A DNA stretch of 64,000 nt, from positions 17,594-81,593 of IMG/VR virus record IMGVR_UViG_3300045988_100580; one strand, written 5' to 3'. The notes below the pieces were generated by a model. That model was not told where the DNA came from and did not search any database. It worked only from the letters and a program-made list of their open reading frames with translations. Positions 14,467 to 49,730 of this stretch are shown here, in pieces (within the stretch, counting starts at the first letter, position 1; each line of letters begins with the position of its first letter). This stretch comes from a virus. A program made the translations under genes and the position numbers.

Positions 14467-14997
14467 ATGAGAAGGAGATTTTTTAATGCTGCGGATAATT
14501 TTGTGGGAGGATGTTATAATAAGTTATCCAATGAAGATATAAAAAGGCTTGGAGGAAAAAGACCTTATGTATGTCAGTTTAATAAAATTCATATACATAT
14601 AGGACCTGTATTAAAAGATTATGATTCTGATGTTAGTTACATAATGTTTAATAGTGATTGGAATTATGGTGGTTATGAATCTATGGTTTATAATCATAGC
14701 AATAATGGTATTTTTATATTAGGTGAAAACAAAATTGGTAACATAGAAGATCATATACAAGATCTAACATATTGGTACGAATATGATCCAAGCATTAATG
14801 AAAATTATTGTTATTTTTATTATGAGGCTAATAACAGCGGAAATGCTATCAAGTTGAATGGTGAGTTTGGTGATACCAGTACTGTTTTCAACATTCCCAG
14901 CTTGAAAGTCACCACTCTTCGTGATGGCAGTTTGAGTTTTCCGGAGATTTATATAGAAGGAATTTGGGATCCGTCATTGTATAAGTCGGTTTTATAA
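14467..14997 (+). CDS. Small protein with N-terminal MRRRFF, beta-rich and N/Y/G-rich (177 aa from ATG 14467; the track starts at GTG 14458)
   Basis: AAGGAG 9 nt upstream of ATG 14467. First of three genes beginning MRRRF. Confidence 0.55.
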   Translation: MRRRFFNAADNFVGGCYNKLSNEDIKRLGGKRPYVCQFNKIHIHIGPVLKDYDSDVSYIMFNSDWNYGGYESMVYNHSNNGIFILGENKIGNIEDHIQDLTYWYEYDPSINENYCYFYYEANNSGNAIKLNGEFGDTSTVFNIPSLKVTTLRDGSLSFPEIYIEGIWDPSLYKSVL

Positions 14998-17352: not shown

Positions 17353-17788
17353 CTTATATATGCACGTATATCAATAACATACAAGAAAAGTTAGATTTTC
17401 ATTGTTTATGAATTATTTTTGTTAAGTTTGCAATATTAGTTTCAGGAAGGGATTATGGAAATAAGGAAAAAGTAAGAACCGAACGTAACTAATAACAGTA
17501 GGAAATGAGAATCAGTACCATCAAACGTAACAACAGCATTCATCTTATGTATAAAAACATTATGAATGATTTAGGTCAATTAAGAACTGTAGTTTCAAAA
17601 TCCTATATTTATAATCTGATACAAAATCAAACCGGATTAAGTATCATAACTATATCCCATGTACTTAACCATACCAAAGAACAGGATACGGATTCTTTGT
17701 GAAAAGCATGTATTTTCATACATTTGTTCGTTCTTTAGTTTTAGTGGGGAAAAGTTTTTCATGGTATTTTAGTTTAGATTAGTTGAGG

Positions 17789-25600: not shown

Positions 25601-28600
25601 GGGATGCTGAAAATTCAGAACTGGAATTTAGTGAAAGTTATGCCACAAGAATGGAATCCATATACAAAAAGGCCGAAGAAGAATTAGGGCATCCGGTTTC
25701 TCAAACAACCAAAGAATACCTTAATGCTCTTTCTCGGCAGAAGCGGATATTGAGGCAGCCTTTTATTGATAGCAATGGTAATTTTGATGAGGTTGCTTAC
25801 TATAAGAGTAGTAACTACGAAGAAGAAGGACTGCTTCGTAAACAACGTAAGGAAGCAGCTTCAGAATACATATATGTAGGAACCAGGAGAGTGGAAAAAA
25901 CCGGCGACCAACTTAAGATGGCCAAAGAAATACAAGCTATAAATGAAGTTTGGAGAAAGGAATCAAATAATGTCACTAATGTCGTATCAGAATCGTTTTT
26001 GCAAAAATTGAGAACGATTCAGAACGAGTCAGGAGGAGAAGCTGCGCTGAAGACACTTATGTTGGGGGGGCACCTGTCATTCAACGATCGGTTTTGGAAT
26101 GACGTAGAATCAGAACAATCGGCGCGTACCGAATCAAATAACAAGGCTTCGTATCTTAAAATGGCACAAGACATCATTAGTTCTACGACAAGTGATAGAG
26201 ATGCAACTGACGTGGATTCGATTGTAAAAGATATAGAAAAAAATAAGGCTATTATAAAGGAAATAATCGGAAACAATCGCGATGTGGCTGATATCGGAGA
26301 AATTAATGAAGCGACATTTACCTCATCTGAAAGAGATGCTTTTAGGGCCGCATCTGAAGCTATTGAAGCCGATTACGCTATCTTAATAGATTATGCTAAG
26401 ATGGTGGGTCTTGAAGATATTGATAAGTACCTTACTAAAAGCAGTAAGGCTGAAAACGAAGTAAATCAGTCTTATTTAAATGCTCTTGCTGACTCCAAGG
26501 AAGTGGAATGGAAGTTCGTACAACGTCATACTACGGCGAAGAAAGCAAAAAGGATTCAAGCCTTAAGGGATAAGTTATTCAAAGCTGCTGATAACCGGTA
26601 TCTGTTTACCGTATCTGAAACCAACTACTTGTCAGAAAAGCTTGGAATAAGCAAAGAATTAGACGGTAGAGATTTTAGGAATGCCGTCAATGCTAAAATG
26701 GCCAGCTTGTTTTTAAATAACACAAGAGAATCAGGTATAGAAGAGGCTAATGCTATTGTTAATGAATTTGCCAGGAGCCAGGTCTTTTCATACTATAAAC
26801 GCATGGCGCCTACCGGATATGCGGCTATGATCGACAAAATTGGTCGAGGTGAGATAGATGTGGCGCAGATGGTTAAGGACGTACAAAACGGTACATCCAC
26901 CCAAGATTATGGCATGGACATATCGTACCTGTCTTTCGACCCTGCAAGGGCATGGGTGGCTGAATCTGAAGCCGAAAATAGCGGTCGTAATCCTGATTAT
27001 GTAAAAGATCATGGGTATGGTCATCGCATGCCTAAGAAAAGCCTGTATCGTGATGAATCGTATCTCAATGACTTTGGTATCAAATATGATGCTGATGGTA
27101 ATGAGGTCGCTACTAAAAACGTAGAGCAGTGGAATATGATTCAAAAACTCAAGGAAATAAAAAGACAATCCCTTGATCTATACAAAGAGCAGAGTCCCAA
27201 TTTGTATGCTATTCCACAGATATCAAAACAAGACATAGAACGTATGGAAGGATTGGGTATTAACTTCAAAAATACGGTTCGTAATTTTGTATCAGATCTG
27301 TGCCTGGACAGAGTAGACGATTCTCTATATGGTAAGACCAGGCAAGGGGAAGTATATGACCCGGAAGACAGACTTAGGTCTATACCTAAATACTACATAT
27401 ATGAATTGGAGAACCAAGATGATGTATCTCACGATTTTGGCTACTCTTATTCGATGCTTATGATGCAGTCATCGTTATACAACGAAAAGCAGAAGTCTAT
27501 AGAGCTTGCCCAAGGACTGGAGCAGATGTTGCTGAACAAACAATTTGAGGGCGGTAAGAAGGCTGAAGCAACCCAAGCATATCAGATGTTTAGGGACTTC
27601 TTCAACGATCATTATTATGGCATTAGGATGAACACCAAAAAACTTACGGTGAACATCGGAGGATATGCGGTAGACCTTACAAGAATTATGATGGCTGTTG
27701 AAAGATTTATGTCGGTTATGAACTTGGCACTGTCTCCGTTTGTGGCAGCTACCGGCGCCCTGACAGGTCATATCAACCTCATCATGGAATCTGCCGTAGG
27801 ACAGTATATAAGCAAAGACTCCCTTAAATACGCATCGGCTGAGTTTTCACGTCTTGCGCCATCTTGTATAGCAGAAACCGGAGACATAGATAGGAAAAGC
27901 AAATTATATGTCATAGGTGAGAGAATGGGGATATTCAATATCCGAAATCGTATGTATGGTGCCGGATACAATAGAGCGGCCAGGACCTTAATGCGTTCGC
28001 CTATGTATGCTTTTATGGAAATCCTGAACTACCCTCTTAATCCGCAGGTTATGATTGCTACTATGGACAATGTTCGTTATTACAAAGGCCGGTTCTACAC
28101 GTTCCAAGATTTCAAGATGGAAAAAGAACGCAATAAAGAACAGAGTACCATAAAAAGAGAATGGAACGCATTAAAAGATCGTACTTTATGGAGTATGGTA
28201 GACGTCGTGGATGGAAAGGTGGTTGTAAAGCCGGGATCGGGTGTTACTGTTGAGGAAGTTGAAACCCAGATGGCTATAACCAGGAATCAAGTCCGTAGCT
28301 TGTCGCAGATATGTAACGGATCTTTGAATGAAGAAAACCGAACTGCCGCATCGCGCAACTGGATAGCCAGGTTCATGACCGCCCACCGAGGCTGGCTGGT
28401 GCTGGCAGCTCAACGTCTGTGGAAAAGACGTGGCTTCAATTTCCAAACAATGCAAGAAGAGGAAGGGTTGTCAATTACGTTAAAGAATATGATAGCCAAA
28501 ACATTTAGCTTAGCTTCCGAGTCTGGTATGAAAAACATCATAGATGCCTGGAACGAAAATAAAGATAATATGAATGAGGTAGAGAAAACCAATATAAAAC

Positions 28601-29067: not shown

Positions 29068-29203
29068 ACGAAGAATATCGGACTTGCATTGTTTTTGTAT
29101 GATTCCAATATGTTATATTAGCATCGTCAAAGAGTAGATTGTACGTTTTTTGTTCTTACTTGAAAGATTATGTAGGTTAAATTTTTTCTGAAATTGTTTT
29201 CTT

Positions 29204-29245
29204 ACCGGTTCTCAGTCAGAGATGATAGGGAACCGGTTTCTTTTA
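29204..29245 (+). terminator. Stem ACCGGTTC/GAACCGGT, 18-nt loop, then TTCTTTTAT
   Basis: 8-bp perfect stem plus T-rich tail, downstream of the 2140-aa gene. Confidence 0.4.
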
Positions 29246-29281
29246 TGTTGTCAATTATTGCTATCTTGCAAACAAAAAATC

Positions 29282-29899
29282 ATGAGACGAAGATTTCAAA
29301 TAGGGATGGGGGTAAATCCCTCGCTTATAATCAATAAAGGCATATACATCCAACATGTAGATGGAGGATTATATACAAAAGAAAATTGGTCTAATAAAGG
29401 ATATTCCAATGATCTATGCAATGGAATAGCTCTTGTAGATAAAGTGTGTTTTGTTATAGCCACCGAATATATTGGCACATTTAGTTGGGGTAAGGATGGA
29501 AGAGTAGACAATGTATTTGCACAAAATAGTTCTTATATGGAGACCGTTAAAAAGGATTATTGGGGGCGTGAAAATCAGAATGCGTATCTTGAATATGATA
29601 CCAGTAATGAAAATTACGCTTTTAATAAAGCTAATAGCTATTTATTTAAAAATGGTCAAAATGGATATGTAGGTGGCGCCGGAGAGTTTTTTTTGATATC
29701 ATTGTATGCGAATGAAATAAACGAATGTCTTTTAATGGTAGGAGGTACGATAATGAGTAATAAAATGTGGACATCCACTCAATCTACACAATTTACCTAT
29801 TCGTGGTATTATGATATAAACATCCAAGGAGATCATTTGGATACAAGTACAAGGAGTAATCCACGTTATGTCCGCCCCTTTACCGAATTAATTTTATGA
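29282..29899 (+). CDS. MRRRFQ… protein with a DUF1566-like C-terminus (WTSTQ…SWYYDINIQG…RYVRPF); start taken at ATG 29282
   Basis: C-terminal pattern resembles the DUF1566 signature (YWSST…AWyvnf…VRcVR). The track starts further upstream at 29222. Confidence 0.5.
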   Translation: MRRRFQIGMGVNPSLIINKGIYIQHVDGGLYTKENWSNKGYSNDLCNGIALVDKVCFVIATEYIGTFSWGKDGRVDNVFAQNSSYMETVKKDYWGRENQNAYLEYDTSNENYAFNKANSYLFKNGQNGYVGGAGEFFLISLYANEINECLLMVGGTIMSNKMWTSTQSTQFTYSWYYDINIQGDHLDTSTRSNPRYVRPFTELIL

Positions 29900-29903
29900 A
29901 ATT

Positions 29904-29978
29904 ATGAGAAGAAGATTTGAAAATAATGCTAAACTATATGAGTATAAGATAGTTAGCAATTGTATAGGGGGGGGGTAA
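29904..29978 (+). CDS. ATG-initiated 24-codon frame (MRRRFENNAKLYEYKIVSNCIGGG*) that ends right after a G9 tract; N-terminal part of a frameshift-split gene
   Basis: ATG 29904, G run 29967-29975, TAA 29976-29978. One added G would fuse it to the 29960..30643 frame. Confidence 0.5.
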   Translation: MRRRFENNAKLYEYKIVSNCIGGG

Positions 29979-30643
29979 TCGTAGAAGGAAAGAAAGTAGG
30001 CACCATTCCACAGGGCGGGCAATTTATCTTTCTGTCTAAAAAAGAACGGCTGGATTCCATAAGGGTCCAAGGCGGTGTTCCAATGGATGATAGGCAAGAG
30101 ATCGATAGTCAGGTTGATACGACAGAGGAATTGCTTGAACGGGATTCGGTGGTTCTTGCTATTGCTTTAACAACCTCTCCTTATTATGGATTTAGAGTAA
30201 GTGTGATAGCACCTGATGAGTTTACGCTAAGAACAACCAATAGGATTGATAGAATCTTTTTAATAACAAGATTTACTCCACCTGCTGCTATATACGGTGT
30301 AAACTTTGGTGATCCTATTGTCCTTAATTATGATAGTTACCAATATAAGATGCCAGATCTTGTAACTGATGGACCTCATGATAGAATAGTTAGGGCAGAT
30401 CCTAATCTTACTTGGGGTGTAAGATGTGCAGACGCCGACTTTAAACCTTTGCCATATCCAGAATCATGGTTTGGCCAAGGTTTAAATTCTATGTTCTTAT
30501 CAGATATGAAACAAAGTCTTGCTCCTGGTGATCATCATGTATCATATACAGCTTATATTAATTTGGACTTGATAAATGATGGCGGAAGTAAAGTTCATAC
30601 TGAATATCTGATATTAAAAAAAACACTTAATTTTACGATATGA
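29960..30643 (+). CDS. Body of the frameshift-split gene (227 aa as annotated from TTG); full length would be MRRRFENNAKLYEYKIVSNCIGGGVIVEGKK… with G10
   Basis: Long ORF in a frame offset from the ATG 29904 frame. The track's TTG start lies inside that upstream frame. Confidence 0.5.
   Translation: MYRGGVIVEGKKVGTIPQGGQFIFLSKKERLDSIRVQGGVPMDDRQEIDSQVDTTEELLERDSVVLAIALTTSPYYGFRVSVIAPDEFTLRTTNRIDRIFLITRFTPPAAIYGVNFGDPIVLNYDSYQYKMPDLVTDGPHDRIVRADPNLTWGVRCADADFKPLPYPESWFGQGLNSMFLSDMKQSLAPGDHHVSYTAYINLDLINDGGSKVHTEYLILKKTLNFTI
29967..29975 (+). repeat. Homopolymeric G9 tract (candidate slipped-strand phase-variation switch, or sequencing-error hotspot)
   Basis: Nine consecutive G in an AT-rich genome, exactly at the frame junction. 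Confidence 0.8.
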
Positions 30644-30689
30644 CAACAATCCCCAACCGTACGCCTATTGTATGGTTGGGGATTGTTGT
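30643..30689. terminator. 16-bp perfect inverted repeat ACAACAATCCCCAACC / GGTTGGGGATTGTTGT with 15-nt loop, at the point where the two gene blocks converge
   Basis: Perfect 16-bp stem with a T-rich tail on the plus side (CATCTTTTCTT). Likely bidirectional terminator. Confidence 0.6.
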
Positions 30690-30732
30690 AGTTACCATCT
30701 TTTCTTGTATAAGCAGAACATGAAATAAGTTT

Positions 30733-31221
30733 CTAAGCATTAACTTCATGACCTCCCCTATCTGTGAAAACTAAACCAATACCTTCTATGATATGTCCTA
30801 CTACAGGAGCTTTGTCAAATTCCTCCTTCGTAGCCCAAGTAGCATTATCAGGCATAAGATCCTTGAATGCGTCCGAAACATCACCTTGACACCAGCAGTT
30901 ATTTGATGTAACAATGCCTTTCCCTTCGATATTGATATACATTTTTCTTCCACCACATCCAAGGCTGTTCCATCCGCTCGGTACGTTTTCCACCATAGGC
31001 TTAAGCACCCAGCTTACACCGTCTATCCTAACCCATCCAGGATCGTCTTTGTGCTTGTCGTACAAGTTTTGCCAAAAAGAGCATTCGTAGCACCATCCCC
31101 TGTCTTCCATGACAGTTCTTATCTCACTCCTTTCAAATCCATCTGCATCCATCGTGTGCGGAGAATGAGGCTGGTGAGGGGTGCCACATTTTGGACATAC
31201 GAGTTTTAAATTCTTTTCCAT
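30733..31221 (-). CDS. Cys/His-rich hypothetical protein (CPKCG…H…CYECSFW), 162 aa
   Basis: Last gene of the leftward block. Putative zinc-binding. Confidence 0.5.
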   Translation of the reverse strand: MEKNLKLVCPKCGTPHQPHSPHTMDADGFERSEIRTVMEDRGWCYECSFWQNLYDKHKDDPGWVRIDGVSWVLKPMVENVPSGWNSLGCGGRKMYINIEGKGIVTSNNCWCQGDVSDAFKDLMPDNATWATKEEFDKAPVVGHIIEGIGLVFTDRGGHEVNA

Positions 31222-34954: not shown

Positions 34955-35311
34955 TCACATTATTCCTTCTAAATTTACTTTTATAGAACCATTTATGGTT
35001 TTAATGCTCCCATCTATGGTTGAAATCACATCATCTATATCATTTATAATGCCTTCCATGTCATCAACCACCTCCTCCATATCAGTTACAGCCCGATCTG
35101 ATTCCCAATATCTTTCTGAGTCTTGTAACGATTCCGGTATATTATCTCTCGCCTCCGTCTCTTCATCTAAAATCATATCAATATCATCTTTGGCTGAATT
35201 TATGTTGTGCTTTAACTCCGATAACTTTGATTTGATGTATTCAAAATCTGTTTTATACTTATTTGCGTTTTTGATAACATCTGATATTTTTTTTCTTCTC
35301 TTGTTGTTCAT
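34955..35311 (-). CDS. Hypothetical acidic coiled-coil protein, 118 aa
   Basis: ORF track. Confidence 0.45.
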   Translation of the reverse strand: MNNKRRKKISDVIKNANKYKTDFEYIKSKLSELKHNINSAKDDIDMILDEETEARDNIPESLQDSERYWESDRAVTDMEEVVDDMEGIINDIDDVISTIDGSIKTINGSIKVNLEGIM

Positions 35312-36729: not shown

Positions 36730-37096
36730 CGCAATCTATTTTACTGTTTTTTGAAAGTTCTATTATCGCCTCTTTCAACATTTCCCTTGCTTTATTCTCA
36801 TTATCTTCGAGCAAGCATACACTGCACGATATGCCCATACGATCTCCATAAGCCTCGGCATTACCTAATGTGAATGCGCAGCAGTAATCATAATCCATGT
36901 TTTTTGCTACGGCAATAAACTGATTATCTTCTATCAGTACAGCATATTCAGCATCAGTTTCACACATGATAATGGCTTTATCTTTTTTTATAGACAATAC
37001 CTTGTTTCTGAAAAGTCCGTTATAAATCCATAGTTCCTTTCCTGCATTTTTATAAAACGCAACCATATCTTCCTTGATTGTAACTTCTTTTTTCAT
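36719..37096 (-). CDS. Hypothetical protein, 125 aa
   Basis: ORF track. Confidence 0.45.
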   Translation of the reverse strand: MKKEVTIKEDMVAFYKNAGKELWIYNGLFRNKVLSIKKDKAIIMCETDAEYAVLIEDNQFIAVAKNMDYDYCCAFTLGNAEAYGDRMGISCSVCLLEDNENKAREMLKEAIIELSKNSKIDCDGL

Positions 37097-40816: not shown

Positions 40817-40847
40817 AACTTTTAAAATTTAATTGTTGATAAAAAAA

Positions 40848-43114: not shown

Positions 43115-43129
43115 GGTTCTTATTTTTTT

Positions 43130-48818: not shown

Positions 48819-49305
48819 TCTTCTTCTCGCCTAATTTTTCAGCTCCCTTCTGAAGATCATATTTGAATACGTCAATGATCTTCGTTTCAGCAATAGCTTC
48901 GCAATTCCAGTCGCCTAACGTGCCCTGCATACCTTTAGTCAACACAGCTTCGGCATCCTTAGGATTGCCGGCCTGGACATACATATAGCATGGAGTTTTC
49001 TTTTCTTTACCTTTCTTTTCATCCAGTGTAATGTAATTTACCTTACACTTATACCAGTACTCAGCTTCTCCGTTGAAGAAGATTTCCGACACTTTAATAG
49101 GATTTATTTTAACAATGTCGAACACTTGAAATAAATCCTTGAAAATCTCTAAAGATCTTGATTCTGCCTCTGTATAAGATAAGGCATCTACCAAATACTT
49201 TTCAGTTACTTTCTTTTTTTTGCCGTTCTCGATATTATCAATCTCGGCTTTTACTGTGATTTCAAACCAACGATTCATGTCTATATTTTTATTCAAATTA
49301 ATCAA
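48808..49305 (-). CDS. DUF4494-like protein
   Basis: Pattern EAEYWYKCKVNYITLDEKKGKEKK…YMYVQAGNPKDAEA…DWNCEAIAETKIIDV resembles the DUF4494 family common in Bacteroidota phages. Confidence 0.4.
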   Translation of the reverse strand: MINLNKNIDMNRWFEITVKAEIDNIENGKKKKVTEKYLVDALSYTEAESRSLEIFKDLFQVFDIVKINPIKVSEIFFNGEAEYWYKCKVNYITLDEKKGKEKKTPCYMYVQAGNPKDAEAVLTKGMQGTLGDWNCEAIAETKIIDVFKYDLQKGAEKLGEKKSEE

Positions 49306-49730
49306 TCCATTTCCTTTTGTACCATAAAGCGTTTACACCTTGATAATTTCAATTTCTTGTATGTAATATCTCTTTGGTTTTTACCATCAATATCTCGAAT
49401 ATTAAAACTACCGGTTTTACGCCTTGCGAATATAAAATAATAACTGTTTTCAAACATAACCCTATCAAACAATCGGAAACAACACTTAGGCTAATAATCG
49501 GAATAGCTTTTGGCTATTATGCATAATACAATACAAATTGTTTATGATTTGTATGGGTTATGCATTATTCTCGATTATTCGTGGCCACGAAATACTTACA
49601 CCCCTCTAAGTGCGTCAGGGCTTCAATCATAGCTTCTTTTATCTCTTTTTCTTCCATTCTGTTTGTTTTTTTGGACAAAGATATGCCTTTTGATAATAAA
49701 AAAGATTCAAAATGATTTAATTTAGCTTAA
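49306..49730. promoter_or_regulatory. 425-bp noncoding island inside the leftward gene array, with a 14-bp perfect palindrome TTCGTGGCCACGAA (49579-49592) and several hairpins and direct repeats
   Basis: No ORF over 30 codons. Contains AATAGC/GCTATT and TACAAAT/ATTTGTA hairpins and a TTATGCAT(A/T)AT direct repeat. Confidence 0.45.

Follow-up and report, generated by a model that had tools for sequence, protein, structure and literature searches.

A length-variable poly-G tract in an epsilon crAss-like gut phage is a probable slipped-strand ON/OFF switch of a late gene

The split gene and its in-frame product

The stretch of DNA analysed here, 64,000 nucleotides from the IMG/VR virus record IMGVR_UViG_3300045988_100580 (positions 17,594 to 81,593; hereafter the window, whose own coordinates are used throughout), carries a late gene that is broken in two by a run of G's, and it is this gene and its tract that we describe (Table 1). 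The arrangement is the one recorded in an earlier sequence-only reading and stood when the sequence was re-read: the frame opened by the ATG at 29904 extends over 24 codons up to and including the tract, which is exactly nine bases long, is bordered by an A on one side and a T on the other, provides codons 22-24 of the gene and is followed directly by a TAA stop. The body of the gene lies intact in the -1 frame, within a program-called open reading frame (ORF) at 29960-30643 (TTG start, 227 aa, -1 frame). A single inserted G yields a continuous protein of 246 aa (…CIGGGVIVEGKK…, with the junction peptide IVSNCIGGGVIVEGK), and the removal of two G's (G7) likewise restores the reading frame, so that both of the edits named earlier do rejoin the short frame to the 227-aa ORF. 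Sorted by tract length, the product is 245/246 aa for G10, 24 aa for G9 and 44 aa for G8, and residues 1-24 of the 245/246-aa protein of in-frame (ON) alleles are those of the MRRRFENNAKLYEYKIVSNCIGGG frame; the window carries an out-of-frame (OFF) allele, G9. Within the 64 kb, the tract is the sole run of G or C with at least 8 bases and exceeds chance expectation, which for runs of at least 9 bases amounts to 0.012 for G and 0.028 for C.

Homologous proteins show that the in-frame fusion is the normal product of the gene. A search with the fused sequence against 5.8 billion proteins returned 231 matches; among the best 120 of these, ∼100 are 245-247 aa long and align to the entire query (100%) with 75-91% identity, and about a dozen matches are forms of 221-227 aa that begin just past the tract. 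The junction of the full-length homologs reads CIGGGVIVE, CIGGEVIVE or CIGGGEVIVE, and their 24 N-terminal residues are near-invariant. In an AlphaFold model of the fused protein (mean predicted local distance difference test score, pLDDT, of 75.6), the first small β domain includes a strand made by residues 12-17. Because the N-terminal 24 residues are conserved and supply this strand, which would otherwise be lost, independent translation of the downstream ORF from its TTG, raised earlier as an alternative, is unlikely; nor is a start codon conserved at the TTG position. The 90% protein cluster that contains the window's own ORF has 2,677 members, in which forms of 226-227 aa and of 245 aa are mixed; one 226-aa OFF-form protein is present on 23 contigs, and the window's exact 227-aa ORF is recorded from one contig only.

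Table 1. Coordinates of the split gene and of the features around it, in window positions
Feature	Position	Strand	Basis or remark
5' part of the gene, OFF allele: 24 codons from ATG (MRRRFENNAKLYEYKIVSNCIGGG), then TAA	29904-29978	+	sequence
Poly-G tract, G9 in the window (OFF)	29967-29975	+	length spectrum, near-identical genomes, codon use, distant homologs
TAA stop in the zero frame, directly 3' of the tract	29976-29978	+	sequence
Gene body in the -1 frame, VIVEGKKVGT…TLNFTI*, 222 codons and stop, intact	29975-30643	+	whole-length homology to 245-aa proteins
Hairpin starting 6 nt past the tract	29982-30038		-27.3 kcal/mol, z = -2.65; window's subtype only
Adjacent upstream MRRRF gene (MRRRFQIGMGV…, 205 aa), intact, of the same variable cassette array	29282-29899	+	sequence, relatives
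Runs within the upstream gene	29308-29312 (G5), 29687-29694 (T8)	+	variable among relatives
Perfect 21-bp stem-loop between the convergent blocks	30643-30689		-35.1 kcal/mol, z = -7.1

Tract length in related phages

We compared the tract across 69 loci of IMG/VR relatives that carry the gene, of which 30 are ON (intact) and 39 OFF (split). The main subtype (…TAATCG) is represented by 22 ON loci with G10 and by OFF loci with G9 (23) or G8 (8), and a second subtype (…TGTTATG) by three ON loci with G9 and four OFF loci with G8. One further in-frame allele, G11, arose via a T>G change, and interrupted tracts are found both still in frame (GGGGGTGGGG, GGGGGGAGGG, GGGGGAGGGG and GGGGGGGAGG) and out of frame (G8AGG and G8AAG). 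A set of 29 gut-metagenome contigs from ENA holds G8 (4), G9 (7), G10 (5) and G12 (1) alleles, together with an AGG subtype in which G7AGG is ON and G9AGG is OFF; two of the ENA contigs with OFF alleles, of subtypes other than the window's, have ∼150x coverage (ERZ824978 NODE_78, ∼154x, and ERZ826146 NODE_38, ∼150x), and ERZ779874 NODE_535, at 36x, is ON. In the window's own subtype, G10 is ON, and G8, G9 and G12 are OFF. Loci picked via the neighbouring 2140-aa gene, and thus free of bias for the state of the target, comprise 15 ON and 15-16 OFF cases. Across ∼100 related assemblies the tract spans 7-12 G's, with an intact gene in about one half of them, which is the outcome of the comparison with related genomes that had been proposed as a check when the split was first noticed. 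One 100-kb IMG/VR contig (L037) breaks off within this very tract, in a run of 11 G's at its positions 1-11, a pattern that would be expected if the reads had disagreed on tract length and that we take as a hint of it.

The differences extend to genomes that are otherwise almost the same. The flanks of L004 (G10) are 0.25% apart from those of L040 (G9) and 0.23% apart from those of L017 (G6AG3), and the flanks of L011 (G10) and L015 (G11) are 0.00% apart. On a neighbour-joining tree of the flanks with 68 tips, the state changes between ON and OFF at least 20 times, as compared to a mean of 22 for shuffled states, and tract state is therefore essentially without phylogenetic signal. Other homopolymers, in conserved coding sequence, keep their length: all relatives compared agree for a T8 at 35287 (36/36), a T8 at 49214 (68/68), a T7 at 36983 (23/23) and an A7 at 26237 (80/80). 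In the essential 2140-aa gene, the Gly-Gly site at 26064 (TTG GGG GGG CAC, a G7 run) has 0 length changes in 80 relatives, and has drifted synonymously among them to GGA GGT (43), GGG GGT (14), GGA GGG (8) and GGG GGC (1), with GGG GGG in 14. Intergenic runs, for their part, differ among relatives, with 7-9 bases at 40841 (A7 in the window), 8-10 at 43123 (T9) and 6-10 at 49666 (T7); as expected, this variation of A/T runs fits real, unconstrained slippage.

OFF alleles are, with few exceptions, broken at the tract only. The body ORF is otherwise intact in 37 of the 39, and second lesions are confined to a few alleles (L023, L066, L073 and P0133). The pairwise ratio of nonsynonymous to synonymous substitution rates (dN/dS) is about 0.55-0.65 overall and alike in the two states, ∼0.55 for OFF-OFF pairs versus 0.64 for ON-ON pairs, and OFF alleles are therefore not more relaxed than ON alleles.

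The run itself is also retained. A pure run of at least 8 G's is present in 67 of the 73 sequences (92%) in which retention was counted, and at a codon for which the genome has little use: GGG is its rarest glycine codon (14.4%), GGG-GGG is used in one of the 78 Gly-Gly pairs of the window's other genes (P for three GGG codons ∼0.003), and GGG is used in none of their six Gly-Gly-Gly triplets. Distant homologs from separate 50%-identity clusters have a G run at the same codons, in the ON state in L162, L163 and L164 (G10) and in L166 (an in-frame G9, GGG GGG GGT), and in the OFF state in L160 and L161 (G9), while in L165 the run is interrupted as GGGTGGGGG. A sister cassette writes the same conserved Gly-Gly as ATA GGC GGA ACC, and the homopolymer is therefore not needed for coding. 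In codon usage and across homologs, it looks maintained against both codon bias and synonymous drift.

The encoded protein, its neighbour and the cassette array

The fused protein matches no family in Pfam (searched to E = 1) or PHROGs, and an exhaustive profile search over 1.84 billion representatives collected 45 relatives only. Its first ∼60 residues follow the pattern MRRR..Y.Y.I.SNC.GG.V.VDG..VGTIP.G.F.F and make up a domain that, in proteins of 236-590 aa, is followed by C-terminal parts of several unrelated kinds. Large BACON-domain proteins of 650-1270 aa (P0143, P0145, P0147, P0152 and P0154), for which PHROGs gave 0 matches, contain two to four internal copies of the same domain. A PEGA domain (PF08308) was considered for this N-terminal region and has no significant Pfam match in the fused protein; sub-threshold PEGA matches (18-20 bits, with a cut-off of 20.8) were seen only in the large BACON-domain proteins with the repeated domain. 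Foldseek returned only an uncharacterised 221-aa homolog from BFVD, itself a truncated form, and no match in the PDB at E < 0.04, and tblastn found no match among 50,697 phage records. The target is a modular, all-β, accessory late protein. Its conserved N-terminal module and exchangeable C-termini, together with its rapid evolution and its place at the end of the late operon, suggest a surface-exposed role in binding or decoration, which we put forward tentatively, at well under even odds; the earlier label of "host-recognition protein" is a guess.

The target is the last gene of a + strand block of late genes, some of them very large (2213 aa and 2140 aa), that ends at 30643; a - strand block begins at 30733, and the GC skew flips there. 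The region matches the phage csAssE-Sib (OR575929, 151 kb, human gut) at 95% identity over 58% of a 1.7-kb query. csAssE-Sib is described as epsilon crAss-like and placed in the proposed genus Epsilonunovirus; related prophage-like sequences are carried by Parabacteroides, a candidate host (PMC11054128). It has the same gene start, ATGAGAAGAAGATTTGAAAATA (MRRRFEN), followed by an unrelated body of 149 aa, which makes the target one of the cassettes that can occupy a variable site. In the relatives L197-L276, the site after the 2140-aa gene (equivalent to 29070-30700 of the window) is a mosaic of at least six cassette types in varied combinations, each beginning with MRRR[FY]. The MRRRF N-terminus could act as a signal for targeting or translation, or as a handle for recombination. 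In the window, + strand genes with an MRRRF start are found at 14467-14997, 29282-29899 and 29904-30643, each right after a giant gene (2213 or 2140 aa). Of the 80 relatives, 23 are without any MRRR-initiated gene at the site, and in the five of these that were inspected minus-strand genes directly follow the 2140-aa gene.

The target starts 4 nt past the stop of the upstream MRRRF gene, and the products of the two share only their first six residues by BLASTP; for the neighbour's product, Pfam and PHROGs gave nothing beyond PHROG 26312 at E = 0.12. The neighbour is disrupted in 34 of 73 relatives, with lengths of 4, 5, 6, 8, 9 and 10 for its G run and of 7, 8 and 9 for its T run. A mutually exclusive ON/OFF pattern of the two adjacent genes was considered and rejected, since their states are independent (counts 19/17/9/16, Fisher p = 0.30). 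Two relatives have hybrid genes, L042 (3000-3700) and L046 (2972-3100), each a fusion of the upstream gene's leader (MRRRFQIGMG) and the body of the target (VIVEGKK…) with the junction exactly at the G run; the former is in frame (231 aa) and the latter a G9 OFF allele. Given these hybrids and a motif common to the target and the neighbour (ATAGGG..GGGGGTAA), the G run appears to be a point of recombination as well.

The stem-loop between the two convergent blocks probably terminates transcription from both sides and bounds the variable cassette region at its 3' end, and a similar inverted repeat is present in csAssE-Sib. A pattern scan for sigma-70 promoters and intrinsic terminators gave 0 terminator matches, the stem-loop being missed because it has no T tail.

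The proposed slipped-strand switching, its rivals and known systems

In our preferred explanation, to which we give a probability of about 0.72, slipped-strand changes in the G run turn a dispensable late gene of this epsilon crAss-like phage of the gut on and off, which makes the tract a contingency locus. Slipped-strand phase variation was the leading proposal of the sequence-only reading, and comparison with relatives supports it: the fusion is common, the tract ranges from 7 to 12 G's, near-identical genomes differ in it and the bodies of OFF alleles are intact. The locus joins a run above the instability threshold (about 7 or more G/C) inside an ORF, a toggle of the frame by ±1 base, polymorphism without phylogeny, otherwise intact OFF alleles and a maintained run, which are among the features by which contingency loci are recognised. 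The polymerase would slip on the run during replication of the phage DNA, adding or removing G's; the in-frame state (G10 in the window's subtype) would make the 245/246-aa all-β protein, and the out-of-frame states (G8, G9 and G12) a peptide of 24 to 45 aa only. The neighbouring MRRRF gene would switch in the same way and independently, and phage populations should therefore mix particles with and without each accessory protein. That switching is frequent and reversible within one population, and that the resulting heterogeneity is adaptive bet-hedging, is our inference.

Several observations weigh against this reading. The control runs are A/T runs of 7-8 and G runs of 6-7 bases, none as long as the G9-G10 of the tract, and G homopolymers of 9-10 bases are error-prone in library amplification by polymerase chain reaction and in sequencing. 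Differences between assemblies could in part reflect the assembler's choice of allele, and some samples may be common to the IMG/VR and ENA sets. The target has no convincing fold or family match. It is also dispensable, as the 23 of 80 relatives without any MRRR-initiated gene at the site attest, and its constraint is weak (dN/dS ∼0.6), so that a non-adaptive mutational hotspot would look similar.

On this last account, the run slips and OFF alleles are plain losses of function in an accessory gene that drifts towards loss, for which the relatives lacking a gene at the site, the disruption of the neighbour in 34 of 73 relatives (partly at its T8 run), the second lesions in L023, L066, L073 and P0133 and the dN/dS of just about 0.55-0.65 all speak. 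We nonetheless consider it unlikely, as 37 of 39 OFF alleles are otherwise intact, OFF-OFF pairs are no more relaxed than ON-ON pairs, and the pure run persists in 92% of the sequences and in homologs of at most 50% identity, despite its rare codon and the available GGC GGA alternative; in most lineages, synonymous drift has interrupted the G's at the comparable Gly-Gly site of the essential gene. A simple error in the window, with a true genome of G10 and a split that is an artefact, had been named as the alternative to switching, and is suggested by the single contig behind the exact 227-aa ORF, by an A-run deletion in the relative L023 that points to imperfect assembly and by the general proneness of runs of 9-10 G's to error. 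Against it stand the same G9 in 23 IMG/VR and seven ENA assemblies of the window's subtype, OFF alleles of other subtypes in contigs at ∼150x coverage, OFF-form proteins that recur across many contigs (e.g., the 226-aa member on 23) and control T7/T8/A7 and G6/G7 runs with 0 length changes in 23-80 assemblies each; moreover, a majority-rule consensus would not shorten G10 to G9 or G8 in over half of all assemblies. With so many OFF assemblies and invariant controls, homopolymer error is unlikely as a general cause; for the single assembly of the window this is less certain, and there, too, we hold an artefact to be very improbable.

Programmed recoding would make the G9 allele functional, the full-length protein being produced through a -1 ribosomal frameshift or through the addition of a G by RNA polymerase. 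The sequence lends itself to this: a -1 slip on G_GGG_GGG re-pairs perfectly and yields exactly the G10 product (…IGGGVIVE…), the zero-frame stop comes directly after the run, and a hairpin begins 6 nt past it. A programmed site should stay out of frame, yet such an arrangement is not conserved among the homologs, about half of which are in frame, with G10 as frequent as G9; G8 and G12 alleles are also present, and those with G8 would require the opposite shift. The hairpin is confined to the window's subtype, and a conserved frameshift-stimulating RNA structure was rejected, with z ∼0 in the other subtypes and in the distant homologs that keep the tract. Known bacterial sites of transcriptional slippage are mostly A/T runs, which weighs against recoding as well. 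Programmed slippage, transcriptional or ribosomal, which the sequence-only reading had offered beside phase variation in its transcriptional form, is thus not the conserved mode here and in our estimate has only a slim chance of explaining the G9 allele; slippage may provide a low-level rescue without being the organising principle of the locus.

As a slipped-strand switch, the tract would have its closest parallels in phages of other groups. In the Fletchervirus phages of Campylobacter, polyG tracts of 7-11 G's are reported in the genes of receptor-binding proteins (Sorensen et al. 2021, Cell Rep 35:109214, as summarised in PMC12633550). As in our reading of the present locus, these are poly-G runs in late genes that shift the frame, give rise to a phenotypically mixed population and occur in more than one gene per genome. 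The systems differ in phage order, host phylum and environment, ours being that of an epsilon crAss-like phage of the human gut, and no sequence relationship was found, the target being without a Pfam, PHROG or tblastn match (50,697 phage records); neither identity as a receptor-binding protein nor homology places the target in the Fletchervirus type. In addition, switching was shown by experiment there, whereas here it is read from the comparison of assemblies.

In phages T2 and T4, contingency loci have been described at A runs in agt and rIIA, the switching of which their authors read as bet-hedging (Gomez, Barrick & Waters 2025, bioRxiv, PMC12633550). These share with our locus mononucleotide runs within phage ORFs and, on our reading, reversible ±1 frameshifts by polymerase slippage, but the runs there are of A and 6-9 bases long, with minority alleles at ∼1e-4 to 1e-3 in reads, while here they are G8-G12 and about half of the genomes have OFF as their assembled consensus, which would take much more rapid switching or alternating selection of considerable strength. 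The genes concerned also differ, acting in DNA modification and lysis inhibition in T2/T4 and being a late accessory gene here. Bacterial phase variation by simple sequence repeats, with polyG/C tracts in surface genes of Campylobacter, Neisseria and Haemophilus (e.g., PMC4965091, PMC11868660), resembles the locus in having a G/C run of at least 7 bases near the 5' end of the ORF, ON and OFF states set by frame, OFF alleles that are otherwise intact, and several loci that switch independently into combinatorial phasotypes; here, in contrast, the tract is encoded by a virus and copied by the phage's own polymerase, and the product is a phage late protein.

Within the same phage group, Epsilonunovirus phages have a diversity-generating retroelement (DGR) that targets a C-type-lectin receptor-binding protein (Babkin et al. 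2024, PMC11054128). The presumed purpose, diversification of a late or surface protein, is the same, but the DGR acts on another gene and alters its sequence by mutagenic homing with a reverse transcriptase, with no ON/OFF state. It is conceivable, if short of probable, that epsilon crAss-like phages, which belong to the most abundant phage order of the human gut, have at the end of the structural operon an array of accessory late-protein cassettes in which at least two adjacent MRRRF genes are switched independently by slippage, and in which the G run is also the joint at which leaders and bodies recombine, as in L042 and L046. Virions would then be heterogeneous in a combinatorial, heritable yet reversible manner, as bet-hedging over hosts or gut surfaces beside the DGR-diversified lectin, and Crassvirales would have its first described contingency-locus system. 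In the literature searched, we found no paper on homopolymer phase variation in crAss-like phages.

Few viruses of the human gut are as abundant as the crAss-like phages, which persist for years beside hosts whose surfaces are phase-variable. In these phages, a poly-G switch would be a third mechanism of diversification, besides DGRs and cassette exchange. In practice, gene callers split the target in about half of the assemblies, which annotation pipelines should expect, and in longitudinal metagenomes tract length could be scored read by read to follow the dynamics of phage populations. A switch of this kind would also widen the known range of phage contingency loci, from Campylobacter phages and the T-even phages to Crassvirales.

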